DNA of 64,000 nt from Eledone cirrhosa. Taxonomy: Eukaryota. Where the stretch lies: NCBI GenBank assembly GCA_964016885.1, contig OZ024740.1, forward strand, positions 165,602,001 to 165,666,000. The letters are read 5' to 3'. Each line of letters begins with the position of its first letter. Position 1 is the first letter of the stretch. Position numbers and translations under genes: made by a program. Positions 20,051 through 53,550 of the stretch are shown in pieces. The notes below the pieces were generated by a model that did not search any database, was not told the DNA's origin, and saw only the letters and a program-made list of their open reading frames with translations.

Positions 20051-21135
20051 ATATATATATATATATATATATATATATATATATATATATATATATGCAT
20101 ATATATAGATGCATATAATAGAAAAACGAGGAAGTTTCGTTTACATGTGAAAAATATGTATATCTATCAACCTGTTATACGCGTTTCGCAGAGGATTGGC
20201 CCAGAGTGACCCATAGAAATTATAGAGTTCGAACTCTACAATTGTAGGATTCAAACTCTGCAATCCTGTACTCAATGCTTCTAGGCTTTCTATGCATGGC
20301 CTATATATTCTATTGCATGAACATTATGAGTAATATTATAAAACTTTTAGCCTAAAATCAATATATATTTCGATGTTTATAATTTTTAATACCTACATTA
20401 TATGCTTTCACTATACCATTCTCTTGCATATATAACATGTACTCTATTGTAATTAATATTTTCGATATAATATTCTTGCTATAATATCTTTGTTATAACT
20501 TTTGGCTATAATTAAGAACCAAATCCTTATATACAACATATACCTCAAATTATTTATATTATAGCTTTAATACAATTTTTCATTATAATATTTCATTACA
20601 ATTTTTATATCTGTTGAACTTTCTGCTCTTGCTCTTTAATATATTTATGTTAACACTTATAATTAGTCTTCTCACATATAATGTATCCTGCTAAATCTTC
20701 TAATGATTAGACCTATATCTGGATGAAACGATCATAAGCTATTAAATGTTTTAAACACAATTTGATTGTTATTTATCTTATACACACACACACACACATA
20801 TATATATATATATATATATATATATATATATATATATATATATATATATATAGTAATAATAATAAATGTGAAGACTAAAATTCGAAAAGGGCTCGATAAG
20901 GATAATATATATATCAAAATATATAAAACCATAGAGCAAATATTTATTGAAATAACAGATTAAAATTTAAGCAAAAAAATCGCTGCTGTCATCTTGAACG
21001 GGTTATTCTGAATTTTAGATATATATATATATATGAATGTATATATAGTGTATTTTGGAATACACTGTATGCTTAATTAAAAGCATTTCGAAAACCTTAC
21101 GCTATTTTCATTTTTCAGCAAACAAGAGGAGATAA

Positions 21136-21180
21136 AGCTGACAGAGCTCTGTTTCGTACTGATTGTTACTTATCAAAGCC
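21136..21180 (-). ncRNA. Hammerhead ribozyme, U3-A8 core
   Basis: ggct TTGATAA gtaacaatcagtac GAAA cagagctctg TC agct. Confidence 0.75.
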
Positions 21181-21457
21181 AAGTACTCCACCTGTTTGCT
21201 GAAAATCGTGAATGTTTGATTCTTATAGAATTCTAGTAATATTCAGGAACTGATTATACAGAGCGGTTGCCGGTCAAGCAGAAATTGAAAATTAGAATTG
21301 GTGCTCTGAAATAGCGAGATATATATGAATGCATATATATTGTATTTTGCAATACACTGTATGCTTAATTAAAAGCATTTCGAAGATCTTACGCTATTGT
21401 TTTAGAGTAGTGACAGTCTCACTTACTTTAAATTTTTCAGCAAACAAGGGGAGATAA

Positions 21458-21502
21458 AACTGACAAAGCTCAGTTTCGTACTGATTGGTACTTATCAAAG
21501 CC
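21458..21502 (-). ncRNA. Hammerhead ribozyme, U3-A8 core
   Basis: ggct TTGATAA gtac caatca gtac GAAA ctgagctttg TC agtt. Confidence 0.75.
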
Positions 21503-21614
21503 AAGTACTCCACCTGTTTGCTGAAAATCATGAATGTTTGATTCTTATAGAATTCTAGTAATAATCAGGAACTGATTATACAGAGCGGTTGCCGGTCAAA
21601 CAGGTGGAGTACTT

Positions 21615-21659
21615 GGCTTTGATAAGTACCAATCAGTACGAAACAGAGCTCTGTCAGTT
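21615..21659 (+). ncRNA. Hammerhead ribozyme, U3-A8 core
   Basis: ggct TTGATAA gtac caatca gtac GAAA cagagctctg TC agtt; palindromic stem III. Confidence 0.8.
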
Positions 21660-21865
21660 TTATCTCCCCTTGTTTGCTGAAAATTTAAAGTAAGTGAGAC
21701 TGTTACTACTCTAAAACAATAGCGTAAGGTCTTCGAAATGCTTTTAATTAAGCATACAGTGTATTGCAAAATACACTATATATACATTCATATATATATA
21801 CATTCATATATATATATATATATATATATATATATATATATATATATATATATATATATATATAT

Positions 21866-51066: not shown

Positions 51067-51189
51067 ACATGTATCATCTATTTCTCTTAATTTTGGATGG
51101 TAAGGTTGCAAAGAAGAGAAACTTTTCCTCGTCCCGGATATAATCGTTCATCCTTTGAATCATACGAATGTTTTGCAGACTTTCAAGAC

Positions 51190-52135
51190 TTTGGATATCG
51201 TGGCCATTTGTAGCTTATGAATTAAAGTGCTGCGTTCTTTCTCTACAAACCCAAGTTTAGTTATATTTTGGTCCAATCGTGTTTGTATATATCCTGTAGC
51301 TCCAATAATAATAGATGTGCCACTTAACGTTTATTTGGGGTACTGGATCTGTTGACATCTTTAACAGAGCATGTTTTTAATATGTAGCCCCAAACAACAA
51401 TGTCTGGCTAGTTGCGTTTTAATTCTGTGGCATCTTATATTTTAGGTCCCACCAATATGACCTTGAGGCATCAGTCTCGACATGTTTCTCCATAGTTGTT
51501 ATTCTCATTTTCCGTAGTGCATTCCAAATAGTTCAAAAATATTTTTTCACAGTTGGCAATAATGTGGCTGGCATTTTAGATTTTGTTTTGCATAACCTAC
51601 ATATTGTCAACTGATGTTTCTACTCTCTTGTACGGTAAATGGGAATGTCTTGTACCTGGATTGCTTGGAAGTATCCCTTAAGGTTGGATGTTATAAACTT
51701 GTCGGAGCACCGAGTCAGGCTTTTGTATGGCTTATCCCCTCTATGGTGTGTTTTTCGTCATCCACTGGTCTATTTAAAAAAAATTTGTTCAAGCATTAAA
51801 TAGAATCTCTCAATGTTTCTAGGATAAAGGTTTGTGCCAGCTTTTATTTCATATCTTTCCTCTAGATCTGTGGTTCCCCTAAACATGCTATTTTCATGTG
51901 CATGAGCGAGATGGTTGCTTAACTTTTTCTTCTATTGTAGGTATTGCTTCGATGTTAAAATTCGGATCTCGTTTGATGTTAATATGAATTTTAGGCACCG
52001 GCCACTCTTCTTGAGTCGGAAATATAATCCTAGCCATTCCACTATTTATTTTCAAGTTTCCAGTATCATGGAACATCTTTCGAATCCTTACATCTACTTC
52101 CTTTAGTTCTTGCAATGACCATGTTCAGCTGCGTT
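51190..52135 (-). pseudogene. Decayed R4/Dong-like LINE (post-RT region and RLE)
   Basis: QELKEVDVRIRKMFH.TGN...NS, KRN*PDIVV, IIIGATGYI..LG. Confidence 0.6.
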
Positions 52136-52716
52136 AGGAGTCAATATGCTTGTTGAATAGTAAGAGTTATGGAGATAATTATTTCTGGTCCCCCATTATA
52201 CACGTGTCCATTATAGATATACGCGTGCATATATGTATGATAACCCATATGTGCTCGGGAACTCATAGATCCTATGTATAAATGCATGGTTGTTTGATGC
52301 ATGTATGTGTGTTTGATGTACATACATATATATATGTGTGCACTTATGTATGTGTAGATGGGTGTAGTAAACATTGATGTCATATAATATAGATGACTAT
52401 TACTGTTGTAAGAGATGCTTTACCATTTGGTTCCATATTATCAGGAAGATTAAAAAATCTTCAAAGACATCTGCTATCTTAGGTAATGCAACATACATAT
52501 ATATTAATATTATAGAATTTAATGAGATATGTTATCTTTTATACATTATAATGTATTTCTTTATCAAGATATGAAAAATATGCACCTTGTTGCACTCTAG
52601 TTAAATGCATCAAACGCACACACTTATTGGCTATGCAACATTATAATCTTATGAAATTTTACTTCGTTTCACTTCCAGAGGTTAAATATATATATATATA
52701 TTTATATATATATATA

Positions 52717-52850
52717 GGTAAGTTATTCCGGGTTGAATCGGAGGTAACCACAGTAAGTAAGGTACTCAATACATAGCAGAGTATAAAAGGTTCAATATAG
52801 AAGAGATTCTACAGGACTAGAACTGTTTCATTCGTGAGAAATCATCAGAT
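52717..52850 (-). mobile_element. Family C element with HHR (52814-52848)
   Basis: CTGATGA t ttc tcac gaa t GAAA cagt TC tagtcc; 5' strand of stem I replaced by (TA)n. Confidence 0.7.
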
Positions 52851-53241
52851 ATATATATATATATAATATATATATATATATATATATATATATATATATA
52901 TATATATATATATATATATATATATATATATATATATGTATATAAATACATACATGTATATATATATATATATATATATATATATATATGTATATAAATA
53001 CATACATGTATATATATATATATATATATATATATATATATATATATATATGTATATAAATACATACATGTATATATATATATATATATAGATATATATA
53101 TGCATATAAATACATACATACATGTATATATATATATATATATATATATATATATATATATATATATATATATATGCATATAAATACATACATACATGTA
53201 TATATATATATATATATATATATATATATATATATATATAT

Positions 53242-53550
53242 ATTAGGATTGGTGCTCTGAAATAGCGATGTATACATGAATGTATGTATAGTATATTTGG
53301 CAATATACCGTATGTTTAATTAAAAACATTTTGAAGACCATACGCTATCGGTTTTAAAGTAGTGATATGTCACTAACTTCTTTTCGGCGAAAGAAGGGAG
53401 AGAAGCTAACAGTCAGTTTCACGCTGTTGGCGATCATCAGAGCCACGCACTCCCCGCTTTCGCCGAAAATTATAGAAGCTGGATTCTTATAGAATTCCAG
53501 TGATAATGAGGAGCTGATTATACAGAGCGATTGCCGGTCCAGCAAAAGGT
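53242..53550 (-). mobile_element. Family F single unit
   Basis: Colinear with the 316/322-bp units; (TA)n on both sides. Confidence 0.8.
53404..53444 (-). ncRNA. Hammerhead ribozyme, canonical C3-G8 core
   Basis: ggct CTGATGA t cgc caaca gcg t GAAA ctgactg TT agct, inside outer stem TTTTCGGCGAAAG/CTTTCGCCGAAAA. Confidence 0.8.

Follow-up and report, generated by a model that had tools for sequence, protein, structure and literature searches.

A protein-less hammerhead repeat family of Eledone cirrhosa with at least two apparent switches of the core 3-8 pair

The window analysed here is a 64,000-nucleotide stretch of Eledone cirrhosa contig OZ024740.1 (assembly GCA_964016885.1, forward-strand positions 165,602,001 to 165,666,000). 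A pattern scan identified nine type I hammerhead motifs; all belong to a single repeat family, here termed family F, and lie within four insertions. The core reads UUGAUAA in eight of these motifs and CUGAUGA in one, and each of the nine has a Watson-Crick 3-8 pair within the type I core N3-UGA-N-N8-A ... GAAA ... UH. The features of the window are as follows.

12186..12284, plus strand: old, ribozyme-less fragment of a family F relative (nhmmer E 7e-10)
21027..21797, both strands: family F insertion, subfamily A (U3-A8, G10.1-C11.1)
21136..21180, minus strand: type I hammerhead motif, UUGAUAA, cleavage site GUC, stem III a palindrome, one mismatch in stem II
21458..21502, minus strand: type I hammerhead motif, UUGAUAA, decayed palindrome in stem III
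21615..21659, plus strand: type I hammerhead motif, UUGAUAA, within the truncated inverted unit
22749..23041, minus strand: family F single unit, subfamily D (U3-A8, A10.1.A11.1)
22862..22907, minus strand: hammerhead motif, UUGAUAA, A10.1.A11.1 mismatch, decayed stem II
41368..42783, both strands: family F insertion, youngest subfamily B, period 316
41531..41574, minus strand: type I hammerhead motif, UUGAUAA, G10.1-C11.1, GUC
41847..41890, minus strand: type I hammerhead motif, identical copy of 41531
42287..42330, plus strand: type I hammerhead motif with the same sequence as 41531; Rfam HH9 score 27.6 bits (E 3.3e-5)
42327..42642, plus strand: monomer RNA of 316 nt, predicted from one cleavage site to the next, 35% G+C, without ORF
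42603..42646, plus strand: type I hammerhead motif, identical to 41531
53242..53547, minus strand: family F single unit, subfamily C2 (C3-G8, U10.1.U11.1), TA runs on either side
53404..53444, minus strand: hammerhead motif, CUGAUGA, U10.1.U11.1, GUU site

The insertion at 21027-21797 consists of two tandem minus-strand units and a truncated inverted plus-strand unit, with TA runs flanking both ends. Stem II of its 21136 motif reads GTAA/GTAC, and stem I of the 21458 and 21615 motifs contains AGTT, not AGCT. The 22862 motif has one stem II pair fewer than its subfamily, and the 41368-42783 insertion comprises 2.3 minus-strand and 2.3 plus-strand units that diverge from approximately 42075. In the lone C3-G8 copy, at 53404, stem II (cgc/gcg) is closed by a U10.1.U11.1 mismatch and the cleavage triplet is GUU; these two features, together with the A10.1.A11.1 mismatch at 22862, had been overlooked in a preliminary description of this DNA. 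That description had otherwise placed every motif and core exactly, with TTGATAA at eight positions and CTGATGA at 53404, and the stem I, stem II and outer-stem pairs that it quoted are present in the sequence. The family F units of the window are homologous over their whole length, with between-subfamily identities of 72-82%. Given that the nine motifs represent four insertions, and that the four motifs at 41.5-42.6 kb are identical, the window alone offers one C-G copy versus three U-A insertions. The Rfam match listed above was obtained with Hammerhead_HH9 (RF02275) on a 191-nt stretch and lies below the gathering threshold of 52; this model was absent among the 150 of 197 matches listed from a whole-window Rfam scan. 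Those listed matches were sub-threshold, microsatellite-driven miRNA and snoRNA hits, and were set aside.

Patterns were counted across the 3.0-Gb assembly, with reversed patterns as controls. A general hammerhead pattern produced 3,499 matches versus 8 for the reversed control, so the window motifs are not chance occurrences, and an 18-base family F anchor located outside the ribozyme produced 5,884 versus 1. Core patterns matched 5,537 times for U3-A8, 3,505 for C3-G8, 154 for C3-A8 and 213 for U3-G8 (reversed controls 10, 4, 3 and 5, respectively); these are not pure family F counts, since the U-A pattern fixed U7 while the other core patterns allowed G or U, and since other hammerhead families were also caught. 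Positions 3 and 8 had been proposed to change jointly, and 9,042 of the 9,409 pattern matches are Watson-Crick, in contrast to the approximately 2,200 matches that independence would predict for each mismatch class. The genome counts thus agree with joint change and not with independent variation of the two positions. Most of the listed mismatched cores have a stem II typical of ordinary subfamilies and resemble decayed copies. The copies counted are, however, not independent events.

Pairing was evaluated in 18 natural copies drawn from across the subfamilies, one of them a partial window copy. In this set 94% of 533 cells are paired (stem I 100%, stem II 87.5%, stem III 93.1%), and the stem covariation noted in the preliminary description is borne out by two-sided change in 17 of 31 pairs. 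None of 500 shuffles reached the observed values and slid controls paired at 40-48%, while a measure of further pair types was not above its shuffles (406/500); as the structure was drawn from the same, related sequences, the significance of the covariation is overstated.

The columns of the catalytic core behave differently from the rest of the unit. Across the nine steps that separate ten groups, no change was seen in nine core columns, whereas the 158 other columns show 176 changes (1.1 each, with 68 columns staying fixed), and the constancy of the nine has a rough p of 5e-4. This comparison depends less on the drawn structure than the pairing counts do. The invariant columns are the unpaired catalytic residues U4, G5, A6, A9 and G12-A14, plus A15.1-U16.1. 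When copies are compared with their own group, differences fall in 35 of 915 cells of the core and in 906 of 14,347 cells elsewhere; this comparison is biased because some copies were chosen through core patterns, yet it shows decay after insertion. Given that the core columns are constant between groups while the others change, the sequence comparison soundly supports selection on the ribozyme core along the master lineage, as had been proposed for family F.

The history of the 3-8 pair was reconstructed from the first 100 of the 5,884 anchor matches listed, which yielded 61 distinct loci after nine duplicate loci of two arrays and seven listed places had been left out. Of these, 59 passed the length filter and were combined with five window copies, giving 34 U-A, 24 C-G and 6 other pairs. 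Further relatives were then added, together with 20 copies of an older sister group, O, in which 19 are U-A; one split copy (L256) was left out. The resulting tree is a ladder, with O, D and D2 (U-A, mostly A10.1.A11.1), C and E (C-G, with A-U or U.U) and A and B (U-A, with G-C). Divergence is least in B (0.018) and greatest in O (0.103), and the values between are not strictly ordered.

Trees built with the ribozyme columns removed need two 3-8 changes. Consistent with this, a single U-A clade was rejected with O absent (p-AU 0.005) and a single C-G clade was rejected with O included (p-AU 0.0003), in tests whose groups were defined by the 3-8 trait after the first tree had been seen. Group distances upstream and downstream of the ribozyme follow the same order, with D nearest to C and E nearest to A. 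These data show, at the level of sequence phylogeny, that the 3-8 pair of family F has switched at least twice. The order was probably U-A to C-G to U-A. The split of O, D and D2 from the rest was recovered in 971 of 1,000 bootstraps, and an alternative root that places O beside E, A and B was not rejected (p-AU 0.36); because of this root and the flat upstream distances from O, the order is favoured rather than proven. An ancestral C-G pair, suggested by midpoint rooting, was dropped once the older U-A sister group O had joined the tree. The direction previously put forward, from C3-G8 to U3-A8, fits the younger switch only; the 22862 copy falls in a distinct U-A group that is probably ancestral. 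A second retrozyme family, represented by few copies, also has both 3-8 pairs (L253 versus L266-L268; 69% identity over 143 bases).

The closing pair of stem II differs among the same groups. Position 10.1-11.1, which in type I hammerheads is paired and usually G-C, is G-C in A and B (seven of the nine motifs of the window), A-U in C1 and E, U.U in C2 (the 53404 motif) and A.A in D (the 22862 motif), A.A also being the commonest state in O. A subfamily that joins C3-G8 to G10.1-C11.1 gave 78 matches, of which 70 are C3-G8, and its sampled copy falls just below the A and B clade; five others of the 78 are U3-G8 and resemble decayed A copies. This subfamily and its position indicate that G10.1-C11.1 was gained before the second switch. 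It is conceivable, though we rate it below even odds, that each 3-8 switch occurred beside a 10.1-11.1 change in a trade-off that holds cleavage at a tuned level. Under such a trade-off, A.A would have become A-U with the first switch and G-C would have been gained just before the second, and the family would provide a set of natural variants in which epistasis within a catalytic RNA core could be measured. The combination of U-A with A.A in groups O and D speaks against any simple dependence of U-A on G-C. The C2 subfamily mostly has U17, and the amplified subfamilies with A10.1.A11.1, U10.1.U11.1 or U17 are expected to have lower cleavage activity. The hammerhead core is absent from the minimum-energy folds of the window domains, and a fold constrained to contain it is 2.6-8.6 kcal/mol costlier in the five domains evaluated.

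The family F unit measures 316 nt between cleavage sites and has 35% G+C. No complex ORF of at least 120 aa was found within the units, and none was common to the loci. Copies range from single units to tandem arrays, including pure head-to-tail arrays of the 316-bp unit, and one 10-kb stretch (L130) holds 31 unit matches. Family F thus shows the features of non-LTR retrozymes, namely a unit of approximately 300 bp, G+C below 45%, tandem copies from monomers to multimers, a single type I hammerhead in each unit and no ORF. In the commonest types stem III forms a perfect or nearly perfect palindrome, a mark of dimer-forming Penelope hammerheads according to PMC4209133.

Among 151 distinct loci, 76 are divergent-inverted, none is convergent, 67 have a single orientation and 8 were uncalled. 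A looser count of 92 divergent loci was discarded in favour of the stricter 76, since internal palindromes inflate it. An extra short tail is present at exactly one end in 60 of the 76 divergent loci, at both ends in 2 and at neither in 14, and TA-rich DNA adjoins 74 of 87 tail ends versus 2,659 of 57,040 background positions (4.7%). Penelope-like elements are described as having partial tandems, an inverted truncated copy, a one-sided tail of 30-40 bp and (TA)n targets (PMC8557442). Family F likewise has partial tandems, an inverted 5'-truncated copy, a tail at one end and (TA)n targets. By its sequence features, family F is thus a non-LTR retrozyme that lacks proteins and has insertions of the Penelope type.

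This same anatomy would be compatible with family F units being pseudo-LTRs, or truncated 3' ends, of an unsampled autonomous Penelope-like element, and Penelope hammerheads are reported to occur mostly as truncated single copies (PMC4209133). To evaluate this, nine Penelope-like fragments were used as tblastn queries, and 12 Penelope 3' regions were searched by blastn. A Penelope-like ORF fragment lies within approximately 1.5 kb of 26 of the 151 loci; however, 17 of 150 random 3-kb pieces match too, and the figure of 26 is inflated because query fragments were taken from family F loci. The neighbouring fragments are of mixed families and orientations. Of five neighbouring fragments that were scanned, three have a confirmed GIY-YIG domain. 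The GIY-YIG element adjoining several family F copies has a C3-G8 hammerhead of its own that differs from that of family F. In this partial sampling no consistent RT plus GIY-YIG ORF was seen beside the 151 loci, and the nine fragments gave no Penelope ORF match inside the window. Family F had no blastn match in the 12 Penelope 3' regions, and no autonomous partner sharing its sequence was found in these regions or the sampled loci. With pure head-to-tail arrays also speaking against it, we consider a pseudo-LTR origin unlikely.

Slightly less probable again is that the hammerhead-like fold is kept for RT binding, ligation or RNA stability, with little or no cleavage, at least in the U3-A8 or mismatch-closed subfamilies. 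The amplification of subfamilies with non-canonical 10.1-11.1 closures and U17 would fit such a role, as would the predicted alternative folds and the low in vitro activity reported for Penelope hammerheads (PMC4209133) and for eight of nine retrozymes; in the latter study one of nine Xenopus dimers was cleaved (Li, Clavereau and Pollet 2026, bioRxiv 10.64898/2026.07.22.740005). Against this, constancy falls precisely on the unpaired catalytic residues plus A15.1-U16.1, the 3-8 tertiary pair is retained through two double changes, and U3-A8 ribozymes are active in vitro according to work cited in PMC3088659. The covariation at 3-8 could also reflect shared ancestry or recombination only, with one double change spreading without selection: thousands of copies derive from few sources, so that counts are not independent, and template switching between subfamilies is possible. 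This is the least probable of the alternatives and is largely refuted by the AU tests. Two changes are needed even on trees from non-ribozyme columns, the order of group distances is equal on both sides of the ribozyme, no amplified mismatched intermediate appears among the 78 matches at the E-to-A step, and the second retrozyme family has both pairs.

Together these data support a model, to which we assign a probability of about 0.8, in which family F is a protein-less repeat of approximately 316 bp that is predicted to cut itself, is likely copied by Penelope-like enzymes into TA microsatellites and has switched its 3-8 pair at least twice. Read-through transcripts of tandem units would self-cleave at GUC, probably as dimers by way of the short palindromic stem III, and the 316-nt monomer may circularise. 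Penelope RT and GIY-YIG endonuclease could then prime on nicked (TA)n and generate more-than-unit, partly inverted copies. We anticipate that few source copies are under selection and that inserted copies decay afterwards, which would account for the approximately 4% of mismatched cores.

The swap between U-A and C-G confirms in nature what structure and mutagenesis say of the 3-8 pair, and has been reported since 2011. The novelty that the preliminary description implied for U3-A8 does not stand: natural U3-A8 covariation, as well as U10.1.U11.1 stem II closures, was reported by Perreault 2011 (PMC3088659), and U3-A8 hammerheads of Schistosoma mansoni Cercyon Penelope-like elements gave approximately 1,300 matches with a search pattern made for them (Cervera and De la Pena 2014, PMC4209133). 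The core swap itself is already published, and what family F adds is a single family switching at least twice. No repeated or reversed 3-8 switch within one family was found in a literature search of mostly non-subscription papers. The part that merits specialist attention is the subfamily ladder, in which two compensated switches with defined intermediates offer a simple test of the interaction between 3-8 and 10.1-11.1. In addition, more than half of family F, its youngest subfamilies included, would escape a CUGANGA search, and the insertion anatomy supports the proposed movement of animal retrozymes with Penelope enzymes in a genome outside the sets compared.

Among known systems (general background in PMC6765202, PMC2920678, PMC7151607 and PMC3884650), family F most resembles the metazoan non-LTR retrozymes as described in PMC7229834 and bioRxiv 10.64898/2026.07.22.740005. 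The latter ties these retrozymes to Penelope pLTRs, and they are proposed to be non-autonomous Penelope derivatives. Family F shares their monomer of approximately 300 bp, G+C below 45%, single type I hammerhead per unit, absence of an ORF, range from monomers to multimers and short palindromic stem III. Unlike them, it is in the majority U3-A8, has many divergent inverted copies with a one-sided tail and has no matching autonomous pLTR among those searched; its cleavage is predicted, and the linear and circular monomer RNAs expected of a retrozyme are putative. The Perreault 2011 variants (PMC3088659) are scattered across life, without a within-family history, and the section of that paper on core variants does not mention A10.1.A11.1 with U3-A8. 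The Dolichopoda pDo500 satellite (Martinsen et al. 2010, PMC2837043), like family F, shows a phylogenetic footprint left by selection on a hammerhead within a repeat, including compensatory changes in its stems; in contrast to family F, its abstract does not mention a 3-8 switch. Cercyon, as reported in PMC4209133, also has C3-G8/U3-A8 covariation in more than 1,000 genomic copies that a standard descriptor misses, and neighbouring motifs on opposite strands. Its motifs are minimal, with a long stem II, and are tied to an ORF-bearing element, whereas the protein-less family F unit combines a 4-bp stem II, a palindromic stem III of 9-12 nt and a long outer stem.

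Family F is locally enriched in the window relative to the sampled stretches. The 64 kb hold four insertions, belonging to four subfamilies, together with one old fragment (overall span 12186-53547), whereas 50 other 10-kb stretches, including the 100 kb flanking the window, yielded one partial match.

The window also holds an open frame that we take to be RTE-like:

16754-18457, (+) strand: open frame of 567 aa that includes a PF00078 reverse transcriptase domain (E 1e-29)

The subfamily D copy at 22749 directly follows a degraded 3' remnant of an element resembling this one. 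Elsewhere in the genome, the subfamily D copies at L121-L124 (G000:C10:51.29-51.33 Mb) repeat at intervals of approximately 6.1 kb as parts of a larger, locally duplicated unit. The subfamily B array begins (41368) in the TA run that terminates another element (41138-41367). That element and a Penelope-like family with GIY-YIG have their 3' end in common, at 82% across 78 bases (41138-41215). Given that family F copies at three further loci (L080, L113 and L211) occupy the same position relative to this Penelope-like family as the B array, these data suggest a target common to both families. TA runs also house an abundant short hairpin element (L251, L252, L262-L265), which comprises two opposed, overlapping hammerhead-like halves and has a CUGAUGA core with a U10.1.U11.1 mismatch.

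Another hammerhead-bearing repeat family is present in the window at 2600-3330 and 8206-8282. Its cores, and a motif of yet another family, are as follows:

2841 and 3270: second-family hammerhead core CUGACGA (pattern scan)
2673: second-family hammerhead core UUGACGA, within an inverted copy
7710-7750, (-) strand: minimal hammerhead-like motif, CUGAUGA, with a UA site and a longer stem II

A small recurring family (G000:C1:191057524 and similar matches of the C3-A8 core search) has the core CUGAGAA, which would represent either a C3.A8 mismatch or a deletion of position 7. Relatives of the second family outside the window hold both cores, U3-A8 in L253 and C3-G8 in L266-L268.
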